NCBI GenBank assembly: GCA_963709405.1
Contig: CAVPXM010000079.1
Coordinates: 1-21,394 of the forward strand
From: an uncultured Nitrososphaerales archaeon
Lineage (GTDB): Archaea > Thermoproteota > Nitrososphaeria > Nitrososphaerales > Nitrososphaeraceae
Reading direction: 5' to 3'
DNA length: 21,394 bases
In this document: positions 3,741 through 20,909 of the stretch, in pieces
How positions within the stretch are numbered: position 1 is the first letter of the stretch
How the letters are laid out: every line of letters begins with the position of its first letter
Notes under the pieces: generated by a model
Told to the model about the DNA's origin: nothing
Database searches by the model: none
Seen by the model: only the letters and a program-made list of their open reading frames with translations
Program-made: the position numbers and the translations under genes

Positions 3741-3888
3741 CTGACATGAATCATCTGCTAAGTTGAGACTTCTCCTATGTGTATAGATGAAGGCCGAATA
3801 TAATCGGTGAGCGCCTTCTAAAAGAAATGCATTTAATTTTGTAATTATGCCATGATATAACTCTATACATCAAATCCCCCCATCTTGA

Positions 3889-4004
3889 AGAATGTTTATA
3901 ATCTGGTGCGCCGCACACCTATTAGAAAAGACACTATTTCCGATAAATTAGTGCTCTGCTCTTGAATGTACAATATAGCCTGATTGAATTTCGACTACGA
4001 GAAT
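3889..4004 (+). repeat. Primase-associated non-coding repeat, copy B, directly downstream of primase copy 1
   Basis: agaatgtttataatctggtgcgccgcacacctattagaaaagacactatttccgata matches the copies at 6039, 9457 and 14810. Confidence 0.8.
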
Positions 4005-4620
4005 CTATGATTTAGTCAATACATTGTACAAGTACGAATTTTCTATCTTTAATTTCTCCAAACTTATAGGTAGATATCCACTCTTAGCAGAATTAATATT
4101 ATATTTAATTATGTAATTAGGACTAAAATCTAATCTTCTTAGTGAACTGCATCTATCTAGCCAATTCTTTATTGTTCCAGATGCCTCTTCTGGTGAATAT
4201 TTTCTAATATTGATAAGATAAGGAGCAAGGATGCGCCATAGTGCAAATTACCTGTATCCATCCACTGGTGTTTCCAATAGTTTTTCAAACCATCGGATAG
4301 TAGTTGTATTGCTGGTCTGAGTGCGCGCCCTCTTATTATCTATTAGTCTTTGCTTCATCTTTTCATTGATTAACCACAACTGAAAATAACGTAACAGATA
4401 GTTTATGGCTGGCCTTTGATCATATCATCGCTGTATTATTTTAACTTCCTGTCTGCATTTCGAATTTATGGTCCCAGGAACTCTCACAAGACATGAGTTT
4501 ACCGTAGGAATATGTTGATGATCTCCTTTCTTACTCGTTAGAAACTCTTCTGAAAATTGCATGAATTTGGAAGTCAGATCTTTTCCATTTGGATCTAAAA
4601 ATTTTGCAAATACGTTCTCT
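4005..4620 (-). pseudogene. AEP primase-PriX fusion, copy 1 (5'-truncated, frameshifted)
   Basis: Homologous to about 9593-10215. Reads FAKFLDPNGKDLTSKFMQFSEEFLTSKKGD...SCLVRVPGTINSKC...GYLPISLEKLKIENSYLYNVLTKS*; catalytic motifs I and II are missing. Confidence 0.85.
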
Positions 4621-4669
4621 TAATTTAAGATACATCAACGATAAATAATGTGAGAATGATGTATAACAA

Positions 4670-5421
4670 ATGACAGATCAAAAAGTTGCGATCATAATAG
4701 GTGGTAGTTCGGGTATTGGAAGGACAACTGCAGCTGTGCTTGCCAAAGATGGAGTTAAGGTTACTGTATCTGCGCGCCGTGCTACGGAAGGAGAGGAAAC
4801 CGTGCGACTAGTCAAAGAAGCTGGAAGTGACGGCATCTTTGTAAAGACAGATGTGACAAACGAAGATGATGTCACGTCACTTGTAGAGAAAACAGTCAAG
4901 GAATATGGTAGGCTCGATTATGCATTTAATAATGCTGGGATAGAAGAAATGATGACACCGTTATTAGATCAGACATCAGATGTTTTTGATCGGATTATGA
5001 ACGTAAATGTCAAAGGCGTTTGGTTGTGCATGAAATATGAGATTCCACAGATGATAAAGAGTGAGGGGGAGCAATAGTAAACATGTCTTCTATAGCCGGC
5101 GTTATAGGATTTCCACATATCCCAATCTATAGCGCGAGCAAACATGCTGTACTTGGACTGACCAAATCAGCTGCACTAGAATATTCCAAATCTGGAATCA
5201 GAATAAACGCTGTCGCTCCAGGTGCAGTTGAAACTGACATGGCTAAACGACTAGTGGGAGACAACAAGCAGTTTCTAGAAACAGTAAAGTCAATGCATCC
5301 TATAGGACGCATTGGCAATCCTGAAGAGATTGCAAATGCAGTAGCCTGGTTATTGTCTGACAAGGCATCTTTTGTCTTAGGTCACACATTGTTAATTGAT
5401 GGAGGAATGGTTAGTAGATAG
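4670..5421 (+). CDS. Short-chain dehydrogenase/reductase (glucose-1-dehydrogenase/FabG-like), one frameshift
   Basis: Motifs GGSSGIG, NNAG, YSASK and GIRINAVAPG. The break between ORFs 4670-5077 and 5083-5421 falls at a G homopolymer near 5065-5069. Confidence 0.92.
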
Positions 5422-5487
5422 ATAGTAGATGTGACCGTTTAAATGTAGAACACGTATATGTATGCATGATTCTAGGGTCTACTTTTT

Positions 5488-5675
5488 AGCGCGCCTCATG
5501 ATAGATATACACATATTTTTATCATCATTGTCTATGTATAATGATTATTAGTCTATACATTTTATGTTTTAATTCAGAAAAGGCTTTTAATGTGACGTGT
5601 TTCATACCGTTATCAGAAGATACTATTTCCGAGATAATTATATTGGACTTATCAAAATCTGATATCGCCCAGTAT
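5488..5675 (+). repeat. Primase-associated non-coding repeat, copy C (long form, no adjacent primase)
   Basis: Aligns with 3565-3740 and more weakly with 14734-14900; starts at agcgcgcc. Confidence 0.75.
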
Positions 5676-5746
5676 GTTCAACCTGCTGGACATTAACACA
5701 ATTTAATACATTGTTTTAAATCGACTAATTGCTTTATCTATAGATA

Positions 5747-5990
5747 TCAATTTATAGAGTCTGCAAGCTTCGAGGGCAATTCCGTGTATGCTATACCGGT
5801 GAGGTTGCCCTGAGCGTAGAGCAGTATCTTTTTATCCGATCCATTGAGTTTGGCAAGAATCGACAGATCCAGCTAAGTCAGTCAAAAACATTCGTTCCCC
5901 TTTGAGATCAAGAGCGATACCGATTCCCTCCTGCAAGTGGGTTAGTAGAATCTCTGGAGCCTTTCTCTTGCTCAGATCCGACATGGCACC
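5747..5990 (-). pseudogene. 3' fragment of a YWTD/LDL-receptor-class-B-like beta-propeller protein
   Basis: Reads APEILLTHLQEGIGIALDLKGERMFLTDLAGSV..., then after a frameshift NGSDKKILLYAQGNLTGIAYTELPSKLADSIN*. No 5' part is present. Confidence 0.6.
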
Positions 5991-6038
5991 TAAATTCTTG
6001 TCATCGTACCTAGGCCTCACTCTATCCATCAGATATCC

Positions 6039-6170
6039 CATTTTAGAGAATGTTTATAATCTTGCGCACCGCACATCTGTATTAGAAGACACTTTTTCTG
6101 ATATACTTATTCTGGATCTGAGAGAATATCCGATGTAATCTAATTTGGATTACGATTTCATTATCTATCA
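6039..6170 (+). repeat. Primase-associated non-coding repeat, copy D (no adjacent primase)
   Basis: cattttagagaatgtttat at 6039-6057 is identical to 9457-9475. It is followed by tattagaagacac, a tggat/atccg hairpin, gattacga and ttatcta. Confidence 0.8.
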
Positions 6171-6279
6171 CTGTCTATTATCATGCAATTTTAGTCGAAC
6201 TCAAACTATGGCTAGGTGAAATCACAGTAAGGAAAAATGAAACGTATGTTTATTAATTATGTAAAGTAATGTCTGCACG

Positions 6280-7276
6280 TTGATTGCAAATAATAAAAGG
6301 CATTCACAGAAATCATTAGTTTTGAGCCATTTGCTCATAGTAGTAATTTCTGGAATACTGTTATTCAGCGGAATCGCCATTAATTTGAATAATAATAGTC
6401 AAGCACAAGCACAAGAGCAGCAACAACAAGCAGGCCAGATAAAGGCCAACAAATTGTGGGAAACACCTACCAACCTAAAGAATCCAGAATCAGTAGCTTA
6501 TGCATCCAAACAAAATGTCTTGTTCGTCTCAAATGTAAATGGAAAACCAAATCAAAAGGATCAAAATGGATTCATTTCTGAGGTTTCACCTTCTAACGGG
6601 AGTATAATTAACTTGAATTGGGTGACAGGACTAGATGCACCAAAGGGTATAGTCATTTCAAATGATGGTAGTAAATTATATGTTTCAGACATTACAAACT
6701 TAGTAGAGATAGATATTGCAAATGGAAAAATAATCAAGCGCTTCAATGCACCAGGAATCTCTTTCTTAATGATGTTGTATCAGATAATCTAGGAAATATC
6801 TATGTATCATACTTGTACCAATACTATCTACAAGAGCCAGATGTGAATCTTGGTAATAGTACACTTCTTTAGAAGATTGGTTACAAAGCCCACAATTAAA
6901 TGGCCCTAATGGTTTGCATATAGACAATAACAAAAATAAATTAATTGTTGTTTCTTTGGGACCTTTAAGTAAACCTGGAGGAGGCATGGAGGTTATCGAT
7001 ATAAAAAATAAGACGATAAGCAGTTTAGGAGAACAAGGAACTACATCTCCTTTTGGTGGTCTTGACGGAATAGTGTCCGATACTACCGGAACACATTACT
7101 ACGTTACTGACAATCCTGCAGGAAAGATATATGATGTTAATGCTGATGGAACTGGATATGTAACTTTGATAGATTTACACACAATCGGCGCTCGCTGACC
7201 TAGGATCTATACCAGGCCAAAGTACGATTATAATACCTCTTATGCAGGATAACAAACTTGTAGTTACAAGTTATAA
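6280..7276 (+). CDS. Membrane-anchored or secreted SMP-30/gluconolactonase-like beta-propeller protein, frameshifted
   Basis: N-terminal hydrophobic segment and Q-rich linker, then LKNPESV, LFVSNVNG, NGFISEVS, WVTGLDAPKG, LYVSDI, LNGPNGL, GGLDGI and ADLG..P. There are several frame breaks; the end coordinate is approximate. Confidence 0.75.
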
Positions 7277-7383
7277 CAATAGAAACCTATGAGTAGTTGC
7301 AAATAATTAATTCTCTATGACCTTCTCTTTTTGATGCTTTATAACAAATAGGTCTTTTTGAGTCAGTCTTTGGATTATATTTA

Positions 7384-7587
7384 GATAAATGCACACATCC
7401 AGATGGATGCCACTGGCATATACTTCAGCCGGGTAAGGGCTTTCAATTCCATTCGAAGGAGTTTGTAAGGGGCTATGTCATCGGATGGTGCTCAGTTATG
7501 TCATCGAATGGAGGAAGTGATGCAGACCAAGCAAGTTTTGACTGTGCAAAGGGTCCAGATTCTGCTTCATGGGTGATAGTCAAATAA
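7384..7587 (+). pseudogene. 3' fragment of a Cys-containing hypothetical protein
   Basis: Open frame DKCTHPDGCHWHILQPGKGFQFHSKEFVRGYVIGWCSVMSSNGGSDADQASFDCAKGPDSASWVIVK* with no start codon at its 5' end. Confidence 0.4.
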
Positions 7588-7602
7588 TCATGATGCGAGA
7601 GA

Positions 7603-8031
7603 ATGAAAATATTACTTAGCGCACTTGCAATCGTGGTATTACTAGCGGCCATGGCACCAGTTGTGTCGCTGGACGCAAAACAGACGGCTATGGCAAAGGC
7701 ACCACTGGAGTATGTAGATGCATGGTTGGATGGATATCATAATTATTTACATGGAAAGATGTTACATGATGATATCCACACAGGTATATATAACTGGGGA
7801 TATAGTGATGGATGGAATTACGGAGTAGCACATAACTCAATAACGAAAAATATCAAGAATCATAATATAATAGTTCCAAAAGTCAAAGACATCAGGTATG
7901 TTGACGGATGGATAGATGGTTTTAGAGCAATGATACACGAACTGCCTCGGAATGTTACAGGACATACGATAAGTTACACGAGGGGATTTTATGCAGGATA
8001 TGATGCACCAGACTTTGGACCGCCACCCTAG
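7603..8031 (+). CDS. Secreted hypothetical protein with repeated Y-x-x-G-[YWF]-x-x-G-[YWF] motifs
   Basis: 142-aa ORF with a signal-peptide-like N-terminus and an internal duplication (YVDAWLDGY...HTGIYNWGYSDGW / YVDGWIDGF...HTISYTRGFYAGY). Confidence 0.7.
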   Translation: MKILLSALAIVVLLAAMAPVVSLDAKQTAMAKAPLEYVDAWLDGYHNYLHGKMLHDDIHTGIYNWGYSDGWNYGVAHNSITKNIKNHNIIVPKVKDIRYVDGWIDGFRAMIHELPRNVTGHTISYTRGFYAGYDAPDFGPPP

Positions 8032-8322
8032 CGCTGGCCCAATAGGACTTGTACGCCTGCCGTGATATCAGTTATTAGTTCCGTAACGAGGCCTACGAAC
8101 ACGTTATCAGCGCCCGTAAGATCGGGGATGATAGGGTTGTTAAAGACGCGCCCGTTCGTACCGACATAAGCCATGGCAAAGGGCGCGCTGGTATCGCCGC
8201 CTAACGAGAATTGAGTAATGCCTGTAACATCATTTCCGCTCCCCCGATCACGTCTGGTATCCTATGACGTTTCTTCCCTGTTTACTTATAGGATCGCCGG
8301 TAGGACCCCCTGTGAAGGCCAT
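8028..8322 (-). pseudogene. Possible small frameshifted hypothetical gene, GC-richer than its surroundings
   Basis: MAFTGGPTGDPISKQGRNVIG.., then after a shift GSGNDVTGITQFSLGGDTSAPFAMAYVGTNGRVFNNPIIPDLTGADNVFVGLVTELITDITAGVQVLLGQR*. Its stop overlaps the stop of 7603-8031 (ctag). Confidence 0.35.
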
Positions 8323-8393
8323 GACTGAGATACACATGAAGTTTTATCTATTCAATGTCCAGATATATTGAACAGTCAGGCTATACAGATAAT

Positions 8394-9449
8394 AGATCTC
8401 TTGCGTAATTAGCAGTTATGATCTATTAATGCTGCCTATTTTGACTGTATTCTTAGATTGAAATCTTGTTAGACTGCATCACTCTGAAGTTCAGTATACC
8501 GGATACAATATCAGATATGTTATTGTACCTTCTTAGTTTGTTTCTGAACTTATATACCCATTATTCCAAACTTCTTGATCTTGCATATGGTGTGTTCTAC
8601 TATCTATGATCCTGAGTCTTGAGTGATTCTTGTTGTATTTCATATCGTCATTTGAAAGCAAGGTATTCTTTTTCTTTTTAATGGGAAGTACAGACTTTAC
8701 TGTGGGAAAGTCCTTTTCAATACCAAGATAACCAAGATCAACTATGTTGTCAACTTGTGATGGAGTTATAGTAGGATGATTGTGTTTGTAAATGTCATAA
8801 TCATGTTTTCTTCCATTCCTGTGACCTGTCTTATGCAGGATCAAACCTTCAGTATTAACCATCAATTGTGTCTTGACAGTATGTTTCCTCTTTCTACCTG
8901 AATAGTAACTCTTTCTCTTTCTCTTGTTCTTAGGTCTTGGAATCTCCTGTTCTGTAGAGTCTATGAAAGCCTTGAATCCAGGGAAGTACTGTTCAACTTC
9001 CTCTATAGTTCTTAATCTCTTAGTACGTTTGTATATCTTCTTTGGCAATGGAATACACTCCTTTAGCAAAGATTCTAGGATAGTCAAATCTCTAAATACA
9101 TTGCTCTGGTCAAGATCAAATAGAAATCCCGATAATGCATATGTAATGTACAATCGATAATAAATAAACCAAAAGCATTAGAAGTCTTTCTCTTGGTTTC
9201 AGTTTAAACGGTCTACCGGCACCAACATCTCTTTTCCTCTTCCTTTTAGAAAGACGTCTTCTTTCATATTCCTCATATTTCGAGTCCATTTCTGTGCTTA
9301 TTTGATCAAATTCTGGTACAGTTAGTCCAGTAAGTGACCTGAATAACAAAGGCTTTTTGCATAGTCTTCTATATGACATCAAAGAGATATCACATAAATA
9401 TCCTATATGACGTCGAATATAGCTGTGCTTCTAATTACGCAAGAGATCT
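8394..9449 (-). mobile_element. IS5-family insertion sequence (ISL2/IS702-like), 1056 bp, both ends intact
   Basis: Perfect 19-bp terminal inverted repeats agatctcttgcgtaattag (8394-8412 / 9431-9449), with a 3-bp direct repeat AAT at 8391-8393 and 9450-9452. Confidence 0.9.
8453..9379 (-). CDS. IS5-family DDE transposase (HTH + DDE_Tnp_4-like), frameshifted
   Basis: FRSLTGLTVPEF, GAGRPFKL, FIDSTEQEIPRP, YYSGRKRKHTVKTQ, GRKHD and DLGYLG; the C-terminus ...SDIVSGILNFR...SI* ends at 8453. Confidence 0.88.
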
Positions 9450-9456
9450 AATGTCT

Positions 9457-9592
9457 CATTTTAGAGAATGTTTATTATCTGATATGCTGCATATCGTTAA
9501 TAGAAGCACTTTTCAGATATCGCTAAACCGGACCTGCTTTGTTGTCCGACTTGGTCTGATTCTGATTACGAATATCAGAGTTCGTTATCTAC
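9457..9592 (+). repeat. Primase-associated non-coding repeat, copy E, directly downstream of primase copy 2
   Basis: Matches copies B, D and F. The IS at 8394-9449 abuts its left edge. Confidence 0.8.
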
Positions 9593-10642
9593 CTAAGATT
9601 TAGCCAACATATTGTGCAAGTGCGCATTTTCCGTCTTTAGTTTTTCGAGACTTATTGGTAGATAACCATTCCTCTTTGCAGAATTAATATTATACTTGAT
9701 CATATAATTAGGATTAAACTCTAATCGCCTTAACTGGTCTGCATCTATCAAGCCAATTCTTTAGTGTACCAGAAGCCTCCTCAGTCGAATATTTTCTAAT
9801 ATTAATAAGATAAGGAGCCAGGATGCGCCATACTGCAAATTTTCTATAATCATCTATTGGAGTTTGTAGTAGTTTCTCATTCACCGAATTTTAGTCGAAT
9901 TGACAGTCTGAGCGCGCGCCCTTCTACTATTAGTCATAGTCTGAGTTGCTCTATCTTTTCATTTATGAGCCATCTTCTAAAATCGCGTAATAGATAGTTT
10001 ATCGCAGGTCTTTGACCATCCCATCGTTGTATGATTTTAACCACCTGCCCACATTTCGAATTTATGGTTCCTGGAATCCTAACCAAACATGAATTTATAG
10101 ATGGATTATGTTGAGGATCTCCTTTTTTATTCGTTAGAAAATCTTCTGCAAATTGCATGAATTTACTGGTGAGATCTTTTCCATTTGGGTCTATAAATTT
10201 TGCAAATACGTCTTCTTCCTCCAGGATAAATCCTTCCATAGGTTGATAGATATGATAGCCATTGCCAGTCCATAATACAGTAGGATGGCCGTGCATAATA
10301 GTTTCGATCTTCTTTAAGACTCTATTCATAGCTCTATCGAGTTTATCTTTCGATGTAAAGTCTTTGAGATCTATATCTATCATTAGAAAACTGATGGAGT
10401 TCTATTAATTTCACTATATTTAGTAAATGAAGGATAGGCATTGATCCTACAATCTTCAAAGTTTGATGTTCTAAAATAGTTAAGAACTTCCGTCTTGTTG
10501 AATGCTTCCTTTTGATGACCCCAGGGCTTTTGTCATAATATTTCTTGGGAATATCGGTTCTTGTAAATGAGTTAGAATGAAGCTTAGGTTCTGCTCTATT
10601 TCAGTTAAATCCTGACTACCAAGGGGGTAAGATTTCTTTCAA
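9593..10642 (-). CDS. AEP primase-PriX fusion, copy 2 (near full length, frameshifted)
   Basis: LSFILTHLQEPIFPRNI, DCRINAYPSF, motif I MIDID, motif II WTGNGYHIY and CLVRIPGTINSK. C-terminal EKLLQTPIDDYRKFAVWRILAPYLINIRK...YLPISLEKLKTENAHLHNMLAKS*. Start is approximate. Confidence 0.85.
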
Positions 10643-10657
10643 CCCTATATATCCTAT

Positions 10658-11182
10658 ATCACCCCAAATGTAGTATATGCTACAGACAGAAGGATAATCA
10701 TAAGAGATCCATTACATGCTAGGGCTTGAAAATATTGTAGACATCCCATATGATATTATTACAAGTGTTAAACTTGAGAAAAATATATTGTCATCTACAA
10801 TTAGATTCAAAACTGCAGGATTAGTCAGTTCTACGAGATTAGGAATGGATGGAAGAGATTATTGATTGGACAGGAGGATGAAGAAGGTGGGAAAATTGAA
10901 TCTATTCCAAAGAAAAAAGATGAGGATTTAATTGAAATAATAAGATCCGGAATGCAAAGTAGTAAAAAATCTCCTTCCTCTGAACGACAAGAATCGTCCT
11001 GTCACACCCAACCAGAAACTGTACACACTAAAGGGGAGACTGCTACTCAAATTCAACCGGATAGCCAATCAGTAACATCCATAGCTGATGAATTAGCTAA
11101 ACTTGCAAAATTAAGGGATCAAGGAGTAATTACAGAAGCAGAATTTGTACAGATGAAAGGCAATTTAATAAAGAGAACGTAG
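10658..11182 (+). pseudogene. PH-like domain plus C-terminal SHOCT domain protein, 5'-truncated and frameshifted
   Basis: ITPNVVYATDRRIIIRDP..ENIVDIPYDIITSVKLEK resembles a bacterial PH domain; SIADELAKLAKLRDQGVITEAEFVQMKGNL matches SHOCT. Confidence 0.75.
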
Positions 11183-11567
11183 ATGAGAGATTGCATTTAA
11201 AAATCACTTTACAACGATCTTTTACGTTCAGTCAAGTCAGAAATTTCTTATCGGATGTTTAATTCTACAATAGAAAGAAATCTTCTTCTATTATACAGAC
11301 ATAGATCATTCTTTTCTAAATGAAATCACTTTCACCGCAAATGGTACAACCAATGTTGGAATGCGCTATTAGTAATAATATCATTAATTAGACAAGAAAA
11401 GGAAGAATTTGATTGCGGAATATACCATATTTCATCCTCATTTGAATTCATTCTAAAATAACCTAGGTAATAGAGAAAATAGATGCTTTGTTGCATGATT
11501 CATTATGTTGTAAGTGATATTTATTTGACCACTCCGCATTTCAGTTACTAATAGTAATTATTCTGAT

Positions 11568-12624
11568 ATGATTGACTGGCCTTCGTACAATGAATCACTA
11601 GTCAGACGTGGTCAAGTACTCTTGGATTTTGATGTACTTGATGAATGGGATCATGAATTATCTCAAATGAATGAAGGTAAGGTTGGTGAGCCCTATGACT
11701 ACCCAGATTCATTTATGCAGCTTCTAGGTTACATGAGAGCATATTTCCATCTACCATATAGACAAACACAGGGTGTAGTCATGACTCATGCGAGTAAAAA
11801 AGTTCCAGGCATACCAGATTATAGTACCATTAGTAGACGCATAAACAAACTGGAAATTAAAATCAATGAAAGATTGGGAAATGATATTGTCATTGCTTTA
11901 GACAGCACTGGCATTAAAGTGACTAATCGTGGGAGAATGGATACGACACAAATGGCATGTTAGAAAAGGATATCTAAAGATGCTTTGTTGCATAATTCAG
12001 AAAGATCGTCATCTTGCAATGCTTTTAGTACCTTCTCAGGAATAGGCCAAATGCGGATTACTCCTTTTTAGCTGAATGTTTCAAAGTTAGTTGACTAATA
12101 TCGGATTCGTGCAACAAAGCATCTAAAGATACATGTGGCAGTATGTGGCAGTTGACATCAGAGGAAAAGAATCCTGTCTTTGGAGGTAACAAGTGAAGAG
12201 GTACATGATGGTAGGATACTAAAGAAGTTAGTAGATAATGCTTCTGAAAATAATAATCTGAAGGGTATATCCGCAGACGGTATGTACGATAGCAATAACA
12301 ATTTTAGATACCTATCAAAGAACCACATTAAACCTGGTATAAAGACAAGAAGTAATTCCAAGGTCAAGTCAACTAACTGTCATGCTAGGAATATGTCTGT
12401 AGTAAAACAACAAGCAAACTTCAAAAGATGGAAGCGAAGCGTGACTGATGGACATAGATGGATGGCAGAAACAGTATTCTCTTCTATTAAAAGAATGTTC
12501 GGAGAACATGTAACAGCTAGAAAATTTTCTAACATGGTAAAGGAGAATCTTCCTAAAGGCAACTCTGTATAACATGTTCAATCGAAATGACATAACCATC
12601 AGCATAAATGAACTAAAATCCTAA
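11568..12624 (+). pseudogene. IS5-family (IS903-like) DDE transposase, disrupted
   Basis: DWPSYNESLVRRG, LPYRQTQG, PDYSTISRR, IALDSTGIK, KGYLKIHVAVD (split by the MITE), HDG, ADGMYD and RWMAETVFSSIKRMFGE. Confidence 0.9.
11982..12120. mobile_element. 139-bp MITE with IS903-like ends
   Basis: Terminal inverted repeats gctttgttgca / tgcaacaaagc, flanked by the direct repeat atctaaagat (11972-11981 and 12121-12130). No ORF. Confidence 0.92.
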
Positions 12625-12635
12625 TGGATCATGCA

Positions 12636-13370
12636 TCTATGTAAAAGTTCCTACTTGGCTAGCATATCCTACTATTATCTAATGCTGCTTAGACCAGTCT
12701 TTATTATCTTAGTGTTGGATCCTCTTAAGTTTTGTTTCGTATAGACCAATCTTTCTTTCATTGTATAGTTTCTTGTATGTTAGCATATGCCACATTATAG
12801 TGCATATCTTATTTGCAACATGTGTTATTGCAATGTGACGTCCATGTCTTTTGGCCAGTCTTAGATAGAATTTCCTTAATCTACCGTCAGTTCTAGATGC
12901 AGTATTCAGCTGCTTCAATTAATATCCATCTTACCTTTTTATTACCATCTTTCATCCTTCCCATATACAATGAGTTTCCAGATTGATGCACTGATGGACA
13001 TCATAATCCAGCCCATGATACAAGTTTTTGAGGTGAACTAAATCTGCTAATATCGCCAATTTCAGATGATATCATCATTGCAGAGAAATAATTTATTCCT
13101 GTCATACTCATCAATATTTTAACTGATTCATTATTTGATGCGTCTATCCTTATCTTCGATTCAATATTTTTGATCTCTCTGGTAAGAAATTCAATCTGCT
13201 GAATGTACTCATCTGTAGCAAAAATCTGGTCATTGCCAGTTACTTTTACATCCCTTAGCCATTGTAATCCCTTTATGCCGAAAATCTTGGAATAACTGAA
13301 GTTCAGATCATCATATTTATCAAGAAATGAATGTACCCTATTAATTTCTCTGGTTCTATCCTGTACCACA
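12636..13370 (-). mobile_element. IS110-family element, 3' part (5'-truncated, frameshifted transposase ending at 12709)
   Basis: VQDRTREINRVHSFLDKY, LMSMTGINYFSAMMISSEIGDISRFSSPQKLVSWAGL, PSVHQSG, LRKFYLRL and AITHVANKICTIMWHML. Confidence 0.88.
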
Positions 13371-13371
13371 T

Positions 13372-13636
13372 ACCTCTCATCTACTTTGGAGCGGCTCAAG
13401 GAGTAGTGATAGACGAGGTAGAATCGACGCTATCAGGTGACATAGACCTTCAAGGCTATCTTGGAATGGCTGAGAATGTTAGAAATGGATATGAGAAAAT
13501 AAAGGTTACATTCAAAGTCAAGTCTAATGCACCAAAGGAAAAAGTAAGGGAACTTGTAGAACTTGCACAAAAGAGGTCCCCTGTATTTGATATATTCTCT
13601 AATCCCACACCAGTAGAAGTCTCTCTTCAAGAATAA
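13372..13636 (+). pseudogene. OsmC-like protein, 3' fragment
   Basis: LIYFGAAQGVVIDEVESTLSGDIDLQGYLG...VRNGYEKIKVTFKVKS...AQKRSPVFD. The N-terminal half is replaced by IS110 sequence. Confidence 0.8.
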
Positions 13637-14091
13637 ATGGAATAACAAAAATTTGGCTATAAAGACTGTCAACAAAAATAGAGGATCTAGCCAACCATCA
13701 AATATATCCAGTTCCAATTCTTTTTTGCAGTATTTTCTAGACTCCTTGTAGACTAGAGTTTCATCTTACTCCATAATTTTTGTGAAGTCACCAATTATCA
13801 AAGGCATCAAAAGTTATCCTTATTTACTAGTCCTATTGGGATGATTCTTACTCTCCTGGCTCTCCGATTACTTGTTACAGATACAGTTTCACATTGTCTT
13901 CACTTAAAGATAATCAAATCAATTCCGATTCTGACCAACGTTTCCTAATTCAAAGGATATATTTATAATCCCAAGTCCCAACAATTGTCAGACATCGGGA
14001 ATCGGCGACTGGATCATATCCATGTCTGTTTTCCCATCCAAATATTGCTTAGAGATACTACTGCTTCTCCTCCGGCAAAGACCGTTACCTT

Positions 14092-14420
14092 TCATTCCAA
14101 CTTTCCTTCTATAAGTGGTCTTATCGGAATCTTATCTTTTCGTAATTTAAGCTTATTGAATATGTCTGCGAACTGCTGCTGTTGCTGGGTTTGATCATCA
14201 TCGTCTGCCCCCTTCTTCTTCTATTTCTAATTCTATTCCAATTTCGCTCTTTATCACGTCTTTTCCTTCTCTTGCACCAATAAGAATTATCTGTGCATTT
14301 TTGTAGTCAATCGATTCCGTATCCTTTGTTAATGAAATATAGTTAAGTCTTGTTAAACTCCTTTAGTATTTCAGGTGGATATTTTGTGGCTTCTTGTACT
14401 AGAATAGCCTTCAGCGGGCT
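14092..14420 (-). pseudogene. 3' fragment of a conserved hypothetical protein
   Basis: Frameshifted KYPPEILKEF...IDYKNAQIILIGAREGKDVIKSEIGIELE...ADIFNKLKLRKDKIPIRPLIEGKLE*. Confidence 0.5.
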
Positions 14421-14514
14421 GATATGATACTTGCTCACTGACAATGGCTTTGCCATGGGGGTGTCCCAATTGAGCTATTGAAGCAAATGGTATAGACAAT
14501 ACAAAAATAATTTT

Positions 14515-14725
14515 TCTTAGTTGTCTTGATGGTAAGGTCGTGAGTTACTATCCGATCTAGCGATATATCTTTACTTATGTCATTTGGTTTTAGTTCAGGA
14601 TGATATGTGGTTATGACAGTCCAGATGTTATCAACTTTGAATCTATACCGTATATCATGTAAGGCACGCTTGTCCGCTGGCAGGCTATCGATAAATGACA
14701 CTGATGACATAGAAGAGACCATTGT
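14515..14725 (-). pseudogene. Internal fragment of a hypothetical protein recalled from thaumarchaeal integrated elements
   Basis: LPADKRALHDIRYRFKVDNIWTVI...PNDISKDISL...DLTIKTT. The family association is from memory only. Confidence 0.4.
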
Positions 14726-14733
14726 CGTCATCC

Positions 14734-14941
14734 AGCGCGCCCTTGACTGAACTATATGGCGTCTATGACCATTGAACCAAGTCAGTCCATAAATATGATA
14801 CCTGATTCTCTAAAAATGCTTATAACCTGGGATGTCGCACATCGTATTAGAAGACACATTTTCAGATAAAATTACAATGGATCTGATTTATTGTCCGATA
14901 TAGCCTGCTTTGGAGTACGGATATGAGAGTCAGTTATCTAC
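14734..14941 (+). repeat. Primase-associated non-coding repeat, copy F (long form), directly downstream of primase copy 3
   Basis: Starts at agcgcgcc. Core aaaaatgcttataacctgggatgtcgcacatcgtattagaagacacattttcagata, followed by a tggat/gtccg hairpin and gttatcta. Confidence 0.8.
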
Positions 14942-15430
14942 TTATGATTTATGCAAGTGCGCATTTTCTATCTTTAGCTTTTCGAGACTTATTGGCAGAT
15001 AACCATTCCTCTTTGCAGTATTAATATTATATTTGATTATATAATTAGGATTAAACTGCAGTCGCCTTAAATTATGACACCTATCAAGCCAATCCCTTAT
15101 AGTATGGAAAGCCTCATCAGCAGAACTTTTTCTAATATTAATAAGATAAGGGGCCAGGATGTGCCATATTGCAAATTTTCTGTAATCGCCTATTGGAGTT
15201 TGCAGTAGTTTTCAATCCACCAAATTTTAGTTGAATTTGCGGTCTTGACGTGCGTATCCGCCAACAGTTAGTCTCCGCAATGTTTTCATTAATTAGCCAT
15301 ATTCTAAATTCGCGCAAGAGACATTTTATTGCAGGTTTTTGACCATCCCAACTCTGTATAATCTCGACTACCTGACTACACTTTGAATTCGTGTGCCGGG
15401 AACTCTGACAAGACATGAATTGACCGCGGA
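14942..15430 (-). pseudogene. AEP primase-PriX fusion, copy 3 (5'-truncated, frameshifted)
   Basis: VNSCLVRVP..TNSKCSQVVEIIQSWDGQKPAIK.LLREFRIWLINE...TPIGDYRKFAIWHILAPYLINIRK...YLPISLEKLKIENAHLHKS*. Confidence 0.85.
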
Positions 15431-15448
15431 AATTTTTTTATTTCTTTA

Positions 15449-15741
15449 TTATCCCTGTATCCTTGAAATCGCCTTCTTCAAATCATCCAAATTCATTGCA
15501 GGATTTATTTCTACGTTGGCTTCGAATGCCTGAAATAAAGGTTCTGCAATGTTCGGGATCATATCTGGACTTGGCAAATCCAAAACAAAGACCATAGTTC
15601 TGTTTCCATTCACTTCAGTAAAGTATGCGGCCTCACAGTTGAACTTCTTGGTATAGTCTTCGATAGTCTTCAAGAAATTAGGATCTTAACCATCTTGTTG
15701 CCGGCAGTTGTTGGAATCATTGCTCTAATTAATACTCTCAT
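15449..15741 (-). CDS. Small GYD/DUF3303-like protein (~97 aa), one frameshift
   Basis: MRVLIRAMIPTTAGNKMVK-DPNFLKTIEDYTKKFNCEAAYFTEVNGNRTMVFVLDLPSPDMIPNIAEPLFQ...PAMNLDDLKKAI. ATG at 15741, frameshift near 15690. Confidence 0.7.
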
Positions 15742-15944
15742 GTCAATTCGTCAAAGTAAGCCGGTCGCGCCTCGATAATTAATCTTTCTATCTGAACTCA
15801 AAAATGATAAGAAAATGAACACAATTCTTAGTCATTATCTTTTAGGCAACTCAACATCCCCGCAAGGTTTCCAGTTTTGTATATCTAGCGATGGAATTCA
15901 GGAAAGGCATTGGATATGGTGCAAGGTGGATTGGTATTATATAA

Positions 15945-16057
15945 CACCCGAGATACCCGGGTTATTTCCTAATCAAGAAAAGAATTAGAAGAACATAGGA
16001 CAATATAATAACAGAAAATTATAATAGGATTCAAAACTATCCCGGGTATCACGGGTG
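15945..16057. repeat. 17-bp GC-rich inverted repeat flanking a 79-bp AT-rich spacer
   Basis: cacccgagatacccggg (15945-15961) and cccgggtatcacgggtg (16041-16057) are complementary at 16 of 17 positions. Confidence 0.85.
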
Positions 16058-16518
16058 CAATTTTAGGACAATAAAGTGTAGCGCTGCTAGTATAGCAGGG
16101 TTTCCTGCCAGTCTTATCTTATACTAGATCTTCCCTAAATTCCATTTAGTACCATCGTCTCCAGAGCCAGGAGCTTATCGAGCACTATATCTTGGTAACT
16201 CTCTACCTCAAGATTTCACTTCCAATCTATTCTATCTCTTCTGCACAATAACTGTTGGTTTTGGCCGTGATTATATTAAAAAGGCTCAATATCCGCATTA
16301 AGTATCTATTATGAGCAATAAAAAATACTTATGATTTCTATATTCTGCATTGTAAGAGAGTAAAAATGTATCATTTAGCTAATAACACATATGGTTTCGA
16401 ATAATCATTTAAAATCAATATCAGAATGTGAAGCGGTGACCATATGGCAAATAAATGATAATGCTCTACACTTCGATGGATCACATTTTGTAAAGAAGGA
16501 GGTTGTCATCTACTCTAA

Positions 16519-17965
16519 TTGACAAAATACCTTGTCGAAATATATGCTGAAAGTAAGAAAGGACTAAGGAACTTGGAAGGTCTAAATCTGGATATCAAGA
16601 CTCGTACTGCAAACAAAGAAGATGACAATAAATACTCAGTTACTGGCATTCTTTCTACAAAAGAAATTCAGGATGTAGAATCGAAGGGTTACCAGACAAA
16701 GATTATTTTAGATCTTTCCAAGGAAGCCACAAACCGTTTGAAGGAAGTTTCTTCAATCAATCTGTTCGCAGATATAAAAAATCTTTCTGAACTCATGATG
16801 AAAGCCACAATTCAATATTTGAATACAGGAGAAGTGGAAACAATTTTAACAACAATCCATAGGCTTTACCCGGCCATGGTTACCATCATAGAACTCCCAG
16901 AAAAGACACATGGTTTGCATACATCTCATGCTGTGCTAGTCCATACTACAGGTAACAGCAATAACAGCATCAGCAATTTTAAGCGCCCTGGTGTGTTGTT
17001 TACAGGAAGCATGCATGCAAGAGAATGGGGCGGGTCAGATATTTGCATAAACTTCCTAGTTAACTTGATAAATGCTTACAATACAAAAACGGATCTCACT
17101 TACGGCGATATGACTTTTCCGTCTTATGAAATAAGAAATATGCTTGAAAATATCGATATAATTGTATTTCCAGACGTAAATCCTGATGCAAAGAAATACT
17201 CACAAGCTGCAGATGATCCTGGTATACCTACAAGTATGGAGGGTATATGGTGGCGTAAAAATCGCAATCCTGACATAGTTCCAAACGGTGATAATCCGAA
17301 CCATGCGACAGGTGTAGACATAAACCGTAACTTTGATTTTCTTTGGAGTAGTGGAATAAACACAGTAAACAAAAATGGAACTAATTCTAGTGAAACATAT
17401 GGAGGGAAAGCAACTTTCTCAGAACCTGAATCGAGGAACGTCAAATCCATATTTGATATATACAAAAACATCTGCTATTTTGTAGATATTCATAGTTTCG
17501 GTGGAAAAATTCTATATAGTTGGGGTGACGATGCAGATCAATCAATCAATCCTCAATTGAATTTTACAAATCCAGAATACAAAGATGTACGAGGTATTCT
17601 AAAAGGTGATGGAGTTAAAGAGTACAAAGAATATATTCCAAAAGATGATCATGATACAGTAATTTACCTTGCTAATAAAATGAACGGCGCGTTAACATTG
17701 GTTCGTGGTCAACCTTACAAGGTTGAGCAATCAGTAGGCCTTTATGCCACATCTGCTACCTCTGATGATTATGCCTACAGTAGACACGTATATACACAAA
17801 GATGATGGCAAGATTTATAGCTTTACGATAGAATTCGACAGTAATAAAATGGGATTTATTCCACCAATTACTGAAATGAGAAATATTATAAAAGAGATAA
17901 GCTCTGCTATGACAGAACTTTGCATGATAGCATATAATATACATTGTAGTCCAATTCTAAGCTAA
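16519..17965 (+). CDS. M14-family zinc carboxypeptidase with an N-terminal prodomain-like region, one frameshift near 17795
   Basis: HAREW, WWRKNR, GVDINRNF, FSEPES, DIHSFG, YSWG and TSDDYAY. The catalytic-Glu segment YSFTIEF lies in ORF 17744-17965. Confidence 0.92.
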
Positions 17966-18631
17966 TTATAGAATAGTGTCCGTTCTGAAGTCTTATTACA
18001 GCTTATAGACTGATGAATTTATTGTAAAGCATTACTTTCAATCCTGCTTCTACTTTCTGTGCTCTAAATTTCTTTGAAAGTAGATCTTCACCTAATACAA
18101 TACAAGCTACATATAATAATGAAACTGGCCCGCGCGCCCCTTAACGTTCCCGCAGGTTTCCCGTGTATACTCAAATTGAGCGTCAATTTGCGTGTTTTCA
18201 GACGGGAATCTTTTCTAATGGATGTTCCTCGGTTCCCAGTCATCGATTTGTTTTATTGATGCCTGACTATAAGCTTCCGAAAATGATATCGAGGAAGCTG
18301 AAAATTACAAGTAATACCAAGGATATTATCTTGATAAATCGCAATTTAAGTGATAAGTGATTATGCTGAATTACTGAGTATCACATTGTGAGACATTACT
18401 GAACGATGTTCCATATTGCAGTCACTATACTTATTCTAACAAATCAATTAATGCCTATTAGTATAGAATGGTTCAGATGGCGTTTATAATGACAGCCAAA
18501 TGGCACATACAAAGAGATCTAATTTCGTATAGCTTTTACCTAGTATTGTAGTGATAAGGCGAAGTAGCATTACTTACTAATAAGAAACGATGCTGACCAA
18601 AATAATTATTCATTAATAACTAACTGACATT

Positions 18632-19534
18632 ATGCCAATTCAAGTAAAGGGTTTTGGATGGAAGCGTGATCACAATGATCCAAGAGATTTTACGCCAGAA
18701 CACAAGGAAATTCATGAAATTCTGACATTGAAGGGAACTAAAAAACCAAGAAAAATATCTGCTGTAGACTTACCGAAAAAATTGGACAATCGTAAATGGT
18801 GTTCGCCTGTTGAAGATCAAGGTCATTTAGGAAGTTGTACTGCAAATGCAGGTGTAGGGATGTACGAATATATGGAAAACAAGGCGAGGAGAAAATACAT
18901 AGATGGCTCGAGGCTCTTTTTGTATAAAGCCACAAGATTGCTTATGGGACAGGAAGGAATAGGTGACTCTGGTGCTTATATTAGGACAACATTGGGTGCC
19001 ATACGACTTTTTGGAATTCCATATGAACAGTTCTGGCAGTATACAGATGATCCAGACAAATTCGATAAAATGCCAGATCCTTGGCTATGGGTATTAGGAC
19101 AATATTTCCGAGCACTCAAATACTTTAGATTAGACTATTCTGCAGATGGCAAGGAAAATATACAAAGAATGAAAGAATTTGTCACCAAAGGATATGCTCT
19201 GGACTTTGGATTTGTTGTTTTTAGTTCTTACAAAGATGCAGAAAAAAATGGTGGCATATTCCTATATCCATCAGCTCAGGAATCAGTTGTAGGAGGACAT
19301 TCTGTGCTTATTGTTGGATTTGATGATGATAAGGTTGCAAAAAATCCGAGAGACAATAATACGAAAAAAGGTTGTTTTCTTATTAGAAATTCGTGGGGCG
19401 AATCATGGGGTGAATATGGTTATGGATGGATTCCTTACGAGTACTTTATACTGAATGCCAATGGAGACGTCTTAGCAGACGATGTTTGGACTATAACGCA
19501 AGAGGACTGGGTTGACTCAGGAGAATTTTTTTAA
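18632..19534 (+). CDS. Papain-family (C1A) cysteine protease
   Basis: Intact 300-aa ORF with DQGHLGSCTANA (Q, C), SRLFLY, GGHSVLIVGFDD (H) and IRNSWGESWGEYGYGW (N). Confidence 0.95.
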   Translation: MPIQVKGFGWKRDHNDPRDFTPEHKEIHEILTLKGTKKPRKISAVDLPKKLDNRKWCSPVEDQGHLGSCTANAGVGMYEYMENKARRKYIDGSRLFLYKATRLLMGQEGIGDSGAYIRTTLGAIRLFGIPYEQFWQYTDDPDKFDKMPDPWLWVLGQYFRALKYFRLDYSADGKENIQRMKEFVTKGYALDFGFVVFSSYKDAEKNGGIFLYPSAQESVVGGHSVLIVGFDDDKVAKNPRDNNTKKGCFLIRNSWGESWGEYGYGWIPYEYFILNANGDVLADDVWTITQEDWVDSGEFF

Positions 19535-19750
19535 AGTCTCATATTTATTGGATGTCCACTTTACCCATCCAACATCCCGTAATTAGTCCTACAAAAGCTA
19601 AGTGGTAGCATTTGTCTATTCACGTAAATAATTAATTCAAAGATATTTTGTGAAGATGTAAACTATATCTGACCTTGTTCAAAGCGAGGGATGAATTAAT
19701 CAATAAGGAAGAGTATAGCCGAATTAATCATTATGTGAATTCACTAATGA

Positions 19751-20810
19751 TTATTGATTTGAGGTTAGCATATTATACAAATCCGTATTTTCTGTCTTTA
19801 GCTTCTCCAGACTTATCGGTAGATAACCATTCCTCTTTGCAGTATTAATATTATATTTGATCATATAATTAGGATTAAACTCTAATCGCCTTAAAGAATT
19901 ACATCTGTCAAGCCAATCCTTTATCGTATTGGAAGCCTCATCAGCAGAACATTTTCTAATATTAATAAGATAAGGGGCCAGGATACGCCACACTACAAAT
20001 TTCCTATAATCATCTATTGGAGTTTGTAGTAGTTTTTCGATCCACCAGATCTTAGTCGAATTGGTGGTCTGAGCGCGCGCCTCTTTTACCATTTTCAACA
20101 GTCTGCGTTGTTCTATCTTTTCATCTATGAGCCATCTTCTAAAATGAGCGTAATAGATAGTTTATCGCAGGCCTTTGGCCATCCCATCTTTGTATAATTT
20201 TGACTACCTGCCCACATTTCGAATTAATTGTCCCTGGAATCCTAACCAAACATGAATTTATAGATGGATTATGTTGAGGATCTCCTTTCTTATTCGTTAG
20301 AAAGTCTTCTGCAAATTGCATGAATTTACTGGTGTAGATCTTTTCCATTAGGATCTATAAATTTTGCAAATACGTCTTCTTCTTCCAAGATAAATCCATC
20401 CATTGGTTGGTAAATATGATAGCCATTGCCAGTCCATAATACAGTAGGATGGCCATGCATAATAGTTTCGATCTTCTTTAAGACTCTATTCATAGCTCTA
20501 TCAAGTTTATCTTTCGATGCAAAGTCTTTAAGATCTATATCTATCATTAGAAAACTTGGTGGAGTTCTATTAATACCATCATATTTGGTAAATGAAGGAT
20601 ATGCATTGATCCTGCAATCTTCATAGTTTGATGCTCTAAAATATTCAAGGACTTCCTGTATATTGAACGCTTCCTTTTGGTACCCGAAGAGCTTTGGTCA
20701 TTATATTCCTTGGGAAAATGGGCTCTTGGAAGTGTGATAGTATGAAGTTTAGATTCTGGTCTACCTCATTTAATTTCTGACTACTAAGGGGGTAAATTTC
20801 TTTCTGTGAG
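19751..20810 (-). CDS. AEP primase-PriX fusion, copy 4 (near full length, frameshifted)
   Basis: NLNFILSHFQEPIFPRNI, DCRINAYPSF, MIDID, WTGNGYHIY, CLVRIPGTINSK and WWIEKLLQTPIDDYRKFVVWRILAPYLINIRK...IKDWLDRC...GYLPISLEKLK. It is split over ORFs 20326-20547, 20139-20348 and 19751-20098; the start is uncertain. Confidence 0.88.
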
Positions 20811-20909
20811 GAGGTGAAAGAAATAATCTGTTAGAATGCTACCCAAAGATGCACGTGCATTATTTTCGGGGTTTTTCTACTTAGGAGTAGAGTTGGAGGA
20901 TGGCATAGA

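Follow-up and report, generated by a model that had tools for sequence, protein, structure and literature searches.

The window analysed here is an entire contig of 21.4 kb (C79) from a 4.8-Mb Nitrososphaeraceae assembly, a 100-contig bin with an estimated contamination of 3.67%. The genome is rich in repeats and pseudogenes, with ORFs of at least 100 aa covering only 63% of the bases and 36–50% of many contigs; members of this genus have large genomes (3.4–4.9 Mb) that are likewise rich in both. Repeat families (D1–D8) and self-blastn recovered the four homologous, co-oriented minus-strand primase–PriX copies named in a preliminary description of this DNA, which share 70–88% pairwise DNA identity over 486–1038 nt. 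Their stop codons lie at 4005–4007, 9593–9595, 14942–14944, and 19751–19753, reproducing the described spacings of 5588, 5349, and 4809 nt. Mapping by tblastn against an intact 371-aa paralogue (P0001) indicates that copy 2 (9593–10640) and copy 4 (19751–20810) are full length, both covering P0001 residues 3–361, and that copy 1 (4005–4636; residues 148–361) and copy 3 (14942–15430; residues 193–359) are 5′-truncated, so that no copy has lost its 3′ end and two lack 5′ parts of differing length, as previously described. The truncation point of copy 1 adjoins the start of a short-chain dehydrogenase (SDR) pseudogene, and copies 2 and 4 have a common 5′ boundary near the start codon with a copy on contig C40.

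Although the copies had been described as genes, each is broken by frameshifts and/or in-frame stops, and none retains one full-length open frame. Copy 1 lies in a single frame with in-frame stops, and copies 2, 3, and 4 require two to three frames and stop read-through: copy 2 needs three frames and contains several stops, copy 3 has frameshifts and stops, and copy 4 has three single-base frameshifts and lacks the 3′ repeat described below. The single-base indels lie outside homopolymer runs. With all four copies broken, this is no working gene array but most likely a graveyard for mobile DNA.

The encoded protein carries a PriX helix bundle fused to its own AEP-like domain within a single ORF of 311–390 aa. 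AEP motifs are given as hhhDhD/E (I), sxH (II), and hD/E (III) in the consulted part of PMC12770985 (citing Iyer 2005), and an alignment of 40 sequences (A2) has invariant D54, D56, and D140, with H95 in at least 90%. Only copies 2 and 4, when conceptually translated, show the DxD and GxH motifs noted earlier, as MIDIDL and GNGYH; copies 1 and 3 have lost motifs I and II by truncation. In Foldseek searches against the PDB, the N-terminal domain matched RepB′ (3h20; E 6.8e-4, prob 0.99) and the CAPP Prim-Pol (7nqd_B; prob 0.99) with TM scores of only 0.3–0.37 and a moderate model (pLDDT 72), and in this model RepB′ was also the best full-length structural match (256 aligned columns). No Pfam AEP model exceeded its cut-off for this domain (LigD_Prim-Pol, 15.6 versus 27.4 bits), and NCBIfam PriS scored 12.6 bits against a cut-off of 326. 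The C-terminal ~100 residues match the Sulfolobus PriX sequence profile (E 2e-12); intact paralogues score 42.6–44.8 bits with PF18689 (cut-off 25) and 58.6/62.7 bits with NF033412 (cut-off 50), and this region of the model (pLDDT 84–97) superimposes on 5of3_C, 5of3_F, and 4wyh (TMt 0.78–0.84, rmsd 1.7–2.6, prob 1.00). Within the window, PF18689 exceeds its cut-off in copy 4 (50.3 bits) and copy 3 (32.2 bits), falls just below it in copy 1 (24.4 bits), and has no match to the end fragment of copy 2. These sequence features suggest that the window copies are relics of an AEP protein with predicted primase activity fused to a PriX bundle.

A free-standing PriX subunit of the cellular PriS–PriL primase was ruled out by the fused ORF and by the presence of a separate PriS gene, which is single copy (C63:139261–139758), as the preliminary description expected of cellular PriS. 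The C-terminal ~100 residues resemble, in sequence and fold, the PriX of Sulfolobus (4wyh, 5of3), a non-catalytic PriSLX subunit that the part of PMC9258230 consulted reports as specific to Sulfolobales. Sulfolobus PriX is a free-standing cellular primase subunit, whereas the bundle here is AEP-fused, multi-copy, and, in the window subfamily, borne by mobile genetic elements (MGEs). The order of an AEP domain and then a helix bundle of the PriL/PriX/PriCT kind is shared with RSF1010 RepB′ (PDB 3h20) and pRN1 PrimPol, the latter being an example of the MGE-encoded AEP primases with fused PriCT-1/PriCT-2 bundles treated in the sections consulted of Kazlauskas et al. (2018; PMC5862659). Unlike in these primases, the bundle here matches PriX (PF18689, NF033412) rather than PriCT by sequence, and no helicase domain is fused.

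Homology between copies continues unbroken from the gene across its stop codon into a repeat, and the primase-plus-repeat unit proposed earlier is therefore real. This discrete repeat measures ~200–230 nt, begins ~40 nt downstream of the primase stop, occurs in 77 copies in this genome, and, in the model used, runs antiparallel to the primase gene. All six copies in the window are co-oriented (plus strand). Three lie directly 3′ of primase relics: at 3800–4000 (3863–3984 in one repeat search) for copy 1, at 9337–9560 for copy 2, with an insertion sequence (IS) in or against its distal part at ~9453, and at 14767–14908 for copy 3. Solo repeats occupy 3553–3753 (inside a 397-nt stretch, 3352–3748, that is missing in one metagenome run), 5489–5670 (matches at 5553–5670 and 5489–5651), and 6008–6168; these and the repeat of copy 3 were located by matches to the repeat or unit models. 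Copy 1 and its repeat together correspond to positions 309–1174 of the unit model. Among the 86 matches to this model, ~37 begin at model positions 964–982, and relics that carry primase sequence have 5′ ends scattered over positions 1 to 953; the repeat thus has a sharp common boundary in ~37 solo copies. Genome-wide, 32 of 40 adjacent repeat pairs are co-oriented. At congener loci, those with intact genes included, the repeat lies within ~30–50 nt of the stop in six of ten cases. It is non-coding and contains many short iteron-like words, a GGCGCGCC word, and a BRE/TATA-like box. A candidate end word, CTATAGATAR, was not enriched (6 observed versus 6.4 expected). A MITE- or IS-type transposable repeat fits poorly, since inspection of 23 copies by eye found no terminal inverted repeats (TIRs) at the unit ends and orientation is non-random.

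The intervals between copies hold differing cargo, as stated in the preliminary description: a split SDR, an M14 carboxypeptidase, a C1 peptidase, a SHOCT-domain ORF, an OsmC-like ORF, and IS transposases. Copy 1 and a solo repeat enclose the SDR (4670–5421, plus strand), which carries a frameshift near 5065–5083. The M14 carboxypeptidase (16519–17805) and the C1 papain-like peptidase (18632–19534), both intact, single copy in the genome, and on the plus strand, lie in the interval from copy 3 to copy 4. An IS5-like element (DDE_Tnp_4; 8400–9453, minus strand) has at least nine other genome copies at ≥90% identity. An IS at 11484–12600 (plus strand) consists of DDE_Tnp_1_5 and DDE_Tnp_1 transposase halves separated by a 161-nt insert and gives 20–31 blastn matches per 200-nt bin; next to it lies an IS110-family transposase fragment (Transposase_20; 12600–13400, minus strand; three copies at ≥90% identity). 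The suspicion that the ~5-kb regularity would weaken without such insertions was justified, as it is gone once multi-copy IS and repeat sequences, ~1 kb (8400–9453) and ~2.75 kb (10650–13400), are left out of the count. The genes in the intervals are mostly cellular in appearance (peptidases, SDR, and an acetyltransferase) and are encoded on the strand opposite to the primase copies. The inter-copy flanks have only the end repeat in common, and nothing in the analysis supports the proposal that a primase module shuffles neighbouring DNA. The suggested integron-like cassette system also finds no support: RNAalifold predicted no attC-type consensus structure on either strand of the repeat (energy 0.0), neighbouring ORFs show no orientation bias (17 versus 14), and the contig carries no integrase.

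Mis-assembly, or a strain chimera joining repeats of different loci or strains in the metagenome bin, could in principle have produced such an arrangement. The contig is short and taken whole from a 100-contig bin with some estimated contamination, and no metagenome contig was found to bridge the high-copy IS blocks. In run X1, one contig joins 7360 to 13894 with an 18-nt filler between ends that show no repeat; without 7361–13893, copy 2 is missing from it. However, many junctions of unique with repeat sequence (2766–4374, 4353–4816, 5686–6549, 6029–7398, 7740–8416, 13894–14551, 14616–15068, and 15473–16279) are spanned at ≥95% identity by metagenome contigs of four independent runs, and comparable multi-copy clusters are seen on further contigs of the genome and in each of the six congeners, which makes an assembly artefact very improbable.

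The family was counted and mapped in this genome, six congeners, 12 genomes from other genera of the same family, and 12 from other families. This genome holds ~36–40 loci or fragments, of which only two are intact, both on contig C38 and both of other subfamilies. Matches number 12–41 in each of the six congeners, 0–6 in the 12 other genomes of the family, and none in the 12 other-family genomes, so that the expansion, with dozens of loci, is confined to the genus. Intact window-subfamily genes were found in metagenomes (P0122, 93% identity) and in congeners. About 17 relics retain the 3′ end versus about six retaining the 5′ end. Since co-oriented arrays of the same kind occur on several contigs, the earlier notion of one hotspot is too narrow.

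Such an array might also stem from a single ancient relic through local duplication of segments and rearrangements mediated by ISs, with neither separate insertions nor a hotspot. Recent segmental duplications do involve relics, as shown by the flank upstream of copy 4 (20780–21394), which is 97% identical to C40:618–1229, and by positions 15400–15800, which are 98.5% identical to contig C38; several active IS families in the window and a genome unusually rich in repeats and pseudogenes would also suit this origin. In the free tree, however, copy 1 groups with a copy on contig C21 (support 99/92), and two other species supply the intact genes with which copies 3 and 4 group. The window copies comprise at least two sub-lineages common to other contigs and other species. 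Forcing the four copies into one clade costs 39 log-likelihood units, and the modest identity between copies and their dissimilar flanks likewise argue against local duplication. This interleaving weakly favours separate arrivals. Because the AU test does not formally reject monophyly (p = 0.0625), local duplication keeps a small probability, and we consider it unlikely.

The genomes of congeners preserve what appears to be the intact element, with a module order of tyrosine integrase, small ORFs, an 851-aa Walker-A NTPase-like protein, primase–PriX, and the ~230-nt repeat. Among ten intact full-length window-subfamily genes from GTDB species representatives, eight have the ~850-aa gene directly upstream, and several of these representatives have a PF00589 integrase farther upstream; the integrase at one congener locus (L019:2891–4066) scores 41.1 bits with PF00589. 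The earlier proposal of a family of primase-encoding mobile elements is thus upheld by the conserved integrase module in congeners, but the window itself holds dead relics only. PF00589 has 22 matches in this genome and none on the window contig, tblastn with congener integrases gave only noise in the window at E ≤ 1, and no remnant of the ~850-aa helicase-type NTPase was found there even at E ≤ 1. Genome-wide, the helicase has eight matches, all distant, versus 40 for the primase, and close helicase relics are absent. Every congener, too, has fewer helicase than primase relics despite the 2.5-fold greater length of the helicase gene, a scarcity not predicted by simple uniform decay of whole elements. 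A comparison of integrase-proximal with repeat-distal flanks for exact words of 10–16 nt revealed no convincing att direct repeats around the elements of L019, L020, and C49, nor were common outer boundaries found there. In three congener loci, primase copies have a solute-binding-protein gene 4–5 kb away.

Taken together, the window copies are probably dead replication-primase relics from a family of small, integrase-bearing integrated elements that is specific to this Nitrososphaeraceae genus. The metagenome contig that lacks the block with copy 2 would fit this reading as well. The primase–PriX protein and the upstream NTPase would prime element replication, and the end repeat may be the cis-acting end of the element, either an origin or an integrase arm region beside the attachment site. 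Incoming elements might integrate beside or into resident end repeats to form co-oriented arrays. Deletions, frameshifts, and inserted ISs would then erode these arrays, so that the int-distal end (the primase 3′ part with its repeat) would be the main remnant, interspersed with variable passenger or host genes. Integrative elements can accrete in tandem at one attachment site, for example as genomic island arrays at tRNA genes. The window resembles these in its co-oriented element ends with variable cargo between, and differs in that no att core, tRNA or similar target gene, or integrase was found in the array.

Less probably, although more plausibly than local duplication, the ~1.3-kb primase–repeat unit or the ~230-nt repeat alone might itself spread as a non-autonomous module, either because the element integrase mobilises it in trans or because recombination or replication copies it from the repeat end. 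Such spread would yield 5′-truncated copies with a constant 3′ end in cassette-like, repeat-bounded arrays with varied genes, and it is consistent with the excess of primase and repeat relics over helicase relics in all seven genus genomes, the sharp boundary of the ~37 solo repeats, the co-orientation of adjacent repeats, the repeat-containing 397-nt stretch missing in one run, and the recurrent solute-binding-protein gene. The preferential retention of the 3′ end also fits, but may be due in part to the PriX part and repeat being easier to detect; similarly, the 5′ boundary common to copies 2, 4, and the C40 copy may come from one ancestor. The lack of attC-type structure, the unbiased orientation of neighbouring genes, the window without an integrase, the absence of visible TIRs or target duplications, and the unenriched CTATAGATAR word count against it. 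It is doubtful, too, that the repeat lets the primase–PriX end and arbitrary neighbouring DNA copy or integrate apart from the element, by one-ended or cassette-like mobilisation; if true, this would explain why dozens of co-oriented repeats and 3′-biased primase fragments have hardly any helicase or integrase fragments beside them.

Elements decaying into relics, our preferred reading, would resemble the cryptic integrated elements (CIEs) and other integrase-borne iMGEs of Thaumarchaeota, which, according to the sections consulted of Krupovic et al. (2019; PMC6563490), are small, chromosomal in ammonia-oxidising archaea, and equipped with a tyrosine integrase and an AEP-domain protein plus helicase-type NTPase; these elements carry primpol–S3H fusions, MCM, Cdc6/Orc1, or RCRE. 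The AEP–PriX fusion, the separate ~850-aa NTPase, and the end repeat are absent from the element descriptions seen there, the word "PriX" does not occur in the text, and, unlike the elements described, the window contains relics only, without an integrase. If this reading is true, a genus of soil Nitrososphaeraceae carries a previously undescribed family of integrating elements, whose replicase would be an AEP domain with a PriX bundle beside a large orphan NTPase. Dozens of element copies per genome would then contribute to the unusually large, repeat- and pseudogene-rich genomes of these archaea, and their relics would form a data set for studying the decay of archaeal integrated elements. 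The natural AEP–PriX fusion would also allow the study of PriX-type bundles in primer initiation. For annotation, most Nitrososphaeraceae genes that carry the label "DNA primase noncatalytic subunit PriX" represent fused primases, and many are MGE-borne or dead.

Repeat finding and self-blastn identified four co-oriented stretches on the minus strand of the window, sharing 70–88% pairwise identity over 486–1038 nt, and translation placed their stop positions at 4005, 9593, 14942, and 19751, as the preliminary description had it; the observation is real and beyond chance. Residue coverage relative to P0001, an intact 371-aa paralogue in the same genome (C38:95367–96479), spans residues 148–361 for copy 1, 3–361 for copy 2, 193–359 for copy 3, and 3–361 for copy 4, which agrees with the claim that the 3′ end is kept in all and that two are truncated at the 5′ end. 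The term genes, however, does not hold, because none of the four copies is an open frame: copy 1 contains stops within its reading frame, and copies 2, 3, and 4 require two or three frames as well as stop read-through. Alignment to an intact congener gene showed that the frameshift indels are single bases in ordinary context outside homopolymer runs, and ORF density in the large contigs of the assembly is normal (78–80%); the breaks are therefore taken as real mutations rather than assembly noise. The proposal of a primase-based mobile element is right in kind, but the copies are pseudogenes and the window represents a graveyard rather than a working system. Copy 3 also has a Pfam hit to Peptidase_M27 below threshold (12 bits, E 0.088, cut-off 27), which was taken as chance.

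The window comprises the whole of contig C79, from an assembly of 4.83 Mb in 100 contigs with about 36% G+C, for which completeness and contamination were estimated at 91% and 3.7%. Neither tRNA genes, which are candidate integration targets, nor any Rfam family at gathering score were found in it. Metagenome contigs from four runs, each from a different study, align to parts of the window at ≥95% and span several unique-to-repeat junctions (2766–4374, 4353–4816, 14616–15068, and others); the best run holds at most 0.36 of the sampled words, and uncovered parts of the window are no evidence either way. The long-range order of the contig lacks independent confirmation, since no metagenome contig from the four runs spans the high-copy insertion sequence (IS) blocks. 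The coding density of the genome is unusually low, with only 63% of bases in stop-to-stop ORFs of at least 100 aa; about 25 contigs have 36–51% ORF coverage, and the two largest, higher-G+C contigs (C55 and C63) reach 78–80%. All six congener genomes are large (2.1–4.9 Mb, the 2.1-Mb genome being only 75% complete), and the genus seems to be rich in repeats and pseudogenes.

The PriX half of the family proteins is assigned firmly from profile searches and predicted structure. Both Pfam PF18689 and NCBIfam NF033412 exceed their cut-offs on the intact paralogues and congener genes, and within the window copy 4 scores 50.3 bits, copy 3 scores 32.2 bits, and copy 1 scores 24.4 bits against a cut-off of 25. 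The family profile matches Sulfolobus PriX structures (E 2e-12), and an AlphaFold model with an overall pLDDT of 72, rising to 84–97 across the PriX domain, superposes there on 4wyh and 5of3_C with TMt of 0.78–0.84. The assignment of the AEP half is more weakly supported, and no Pfam AEP model rises above its cut-off. Across 40 aligned family members, three aspartates (the two of the DxD motif and one further along) are invariant, and at least 90% have the GNGYH histidine, which matches the three AEP motifs as PMC12770985 defines them. The top structural matches of the N-terminal domain are AEP enzymes, RepB′ (3h20) and CAPP Prim-Pol (7nqd), followed by LigD and PriS, with a probability of 0.99 and a TM of only 0.3–0.37. 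The cellular primase is separate from this family; canonical PriS is a single gene on C63.

A genome-wide count by tblastn, with P0001, the second intact paralogue, and the window fragments as queries, confirmed the multi-copy state (40 places) but found nearly all copies broken. About 36 of these places belong to the primase family, and the hits at three others are confined to a repeat upstream of copy 2; the places are spread over more than 20 contigs. A stretch of about 800 nt directly upstream of copy 2 (10650–11480) contains a SHOCT-domain ORF and is 85–90% identical to at least six other loci (on C29, C36, C31, C78, C53, and C25), being another dispersed repeat. The only two intact family members of the genome, both on C38, share 47–56% identity with the window subfamily. 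P0001 has counterparts in many Nitrososphaeraceae at 70–93% identity, is flanked by a signal-peptidase S26 gene on one side and a Rad50/SMC-like gene on the other (L001:5368–6480), and has no end repeat (the non-coding unit described below) at its locus. It looks like a conserved chromosomal paralogue and may be a domesticated or ancestral member of the family. Its annotation in public records goes no further than "noncatalytic subunit PriX". Each of the six congeners carries 12–41 family matches, 12 other genomes of the Nitrososphaeraceae carry 0–6 each, and 12 genomes from other families of the order carry none; the expansion is restricted to the genus. Intact proteins of the window subfamily are also present in congeners and in metagenomes; the metagenomic P0122 (311 aa) shares 93% identity with a 155-aa copy 2 fragment.

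Ten loci were fetched from congeners, each surrounding an intact or near-intact primase gene. In seven of them an ORF of about 850 aa ends directly at the primase start, preceded upstream by a small ORF, an opposite-strand ORF, and an ORF of about 400 aa encoding a tyrosine recombinase (PF00589, 41.1 bits; PHROG integrase). The 851-aa protein contains a Walker-A-like word (GDNGSGKN) and has no match in Pfam, PHROG, or PDB sequences; leads from the ESM Atlas point to DUF3631/Toprim-type phage replication proteins with scores of at most 0.88 and TM below 0.5. In a wider, less selected sample of 79 loci from GTDB species representatives, the large gene lies directly upstream of 8 of 10 intact full-length window-subfamily genes, and one of the two exceptions has upstream sequence too short to judge. 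The pair also occurs in more distant subfamilies, including Nitrosocosmicus, sometimes together with an integrase. DNA homology among the congener elements begins at the small ORF and extends about 30–150 nt beyond the primase stop, which together with the conserved module indicates that the primase-PriX family serves an integrase-borne element as its replication gene. The element is similar in spirit to the cryptic integrated elements of Thaumarchaeota, whose replicons, in the accessible text of PMC6563490, include primpol-S3H, MCM, Orc1, and RCRE; the word PriX is absent from that text. The portion of Kazlauskas et al. consulted (PMC5862659) relates the PriCT bundles fused to primases of mobile elements to PriX and does not mention a thaumarchaeal AEP-PriX fusion. 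No description of such a fusion came up in full-text searches, and the supplements of both papers could list the family; the combination of integrase, orphan NTPase, AEP-PriX, and end repeat appears to be undescribed in the searchable literature. A solute-binding-protein gene (SBP_bac_1) lies 4–5 kb from primase copies at three loci of two congeners (L019:11483–12970, L025:13519–15127, and L026:12757–13603) with 81–83% DNA identity, is flanked by end repeats on both sides in L019, and may be cargo moving with the elements.

Homology of copies 1, 2, and 3 extends about 120–130 nt beyond the stop codon into the end repeat, a conserved unit of about 200–230 nt that holds GGCGCGCC, several GATAGACAT or TGTCTAT-like words, and a BRE/TATA-like GAAAATGTTTATAATCTG. 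An nhmmer profile found 77 copies in the genome, six of them in the window in a single orientation antiparallel to the primase. Among 86 matches of a gene-plus-flank profile, the primase-bearing ones have 5′ ends anywhere between model positions 1 and 953, but about 37 start sharply at 964–982, roughly 40 nt past the stop, which marks the repeat as a discrete unit rather than a mere leftover of random truncation. It lies 30–50 nt past the stop of intact congener genes at six of ten loci; of the 79 GTDB loci, those with the repeat all belong to the window subfamily and to this genus. The genome of the window carries a 4.7-kb unit, apparently intact (C49:12459–17157), in which an integrase gene (411-aa frame), one ORF on the opposite strand, and three further ORFs are followed by the same end repeat, with no primase or large NTPase gene, so that the end repeat is common to elements of differing gene content. 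We interpret the repeat as a putative cis-acting DNA site at the end of these elements that is distal to the integrase, either an origin or integrase-arm sites. Several other roles were rejected. RNAalifold on 50 aligned copies found no structure on either strand, and no Rfam match in 3300–6400 was obtained at E ≤ 1. As a promoter of the right-hand gene (nearest ATG-started ORF of at least 100 aa within 800 nt), the repeat lies on the same strand in 17 cases and on the opposite strand in 14 (p = 0.72), an earlier looser count having suggested a bias; left-side neighbours likewise show no orientation bias (16 vs. 17). A scan for bacterial-type promoters and terminators, ill-suited to archaea, stayed at chance level, and CTATAGATAR as a short end or att word was found six times against 6.4 expected.

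Several observations do not fit the relic interpretation and would favor a bolder one, namely independent spread of the primase-repeat end or of the repeat alone. The window holds no helicase (large-gene) or integrase trace at E ≤ 1e-4, and only noise even at E ≤ 1. The genome has no close relics of the large gene, with eight distant matches against 40 for the primase, and helicase matches are fewer than primase matches in every congener (7 vs. 41 in G004) despite a gene 2.5 times as long. Copies 2 and 4 and a copy on C40 all start at the primase start, and no convincing att direct repeats were found around the elements in L019, L020, and C49. We regard such independent spread as unlikely, and its strong version, cassette or one-ended mobilisation, as more improbable still. 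A cassette system in the strict integron sense fails on its defining features: there is no conserved repeat structure, no integrase on the contig, and no orientation bias of neighbouring genes.

Arrival of several related elements side by side, followed by decay, is favored by the element context, by co-orientation, and by a tree inferred from the 293-nt PriX stretch common to its 25 rows, which splits the window copies into two groups. Copy 1 pairs with a C21 copy (99/92 support), and this pair falls in a starred clade alongside copy 2 and one copy each from C44 and G004; copies 3 and 4 cluster with intact genes from G003 and from G001 and with four other relics of this genome. Constraining the four copies to one clade is 39 log-likelihood units worse with an AU p of 0.0625, so that their monophyly is not formally rejected. 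Multi-copy IS at 8400–9453, 11484–12600, and 12600–13400 have since inserted, and they explain much of the apparent period of about 5 kb, the regularity of which had been expected to weaken without them. Within one IS, a 161-nt insert (11982–12142) with bounding 31-nt inverted repeats (11971–12001/12101–12131) interrupts the transposase gene and looks like a MITE-like insertion; high-depth contigs of three runs lack it and join 11981 to 12143. In run X1, a metagenome contig connects 7360 with 13894 through 18 nt of filler and thus lacks the block holding copy 2 and three IS, and another lacks 3352–3748, a stretch including one repeat unit.

Among the neighboring genes, a short-chain dehydrogenase gene (4670–5421) lies in two frames with a break near 5065–5083 and has two to three paralogous matches at other sites of the genome. 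The genes for the M14 carboxypeptidase and the C1 peptidase (16519–19534), separated by an 830-nt spacer, are also adjacent in L035 (G006:C5:2240–4624) at 80% and about 94% amino-acid identity, with the coding-strand order reversed; an empty-site test via this pair was rejected, the nearest congener contig (G006:C5) being only 6.7 kb with reversed gene order. Recent segmental duplication also contributed to the region, window 15400–15800 being 98.5% identical to C38:42222–42622. Over its final 615 nt the contig shares 97% identity with C40:618–1229, and past the matching stretch C40 continues with a further end repeat and the 3′ part of a primase gene; the array therefore probably extends beyond the contig end. 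Of 40 pairs of adjacent end repeats, 32 point the same way (binomial p 2e-4, the pairs not being independent events), with long single-direction runs on C26 and C6. That relics of the primase end and of the repeat are in such excess, and so often co-oriented, is the feature hardest to account for; the array itself most likely consists of co-located, decayed relics of related integrase-borne elements.
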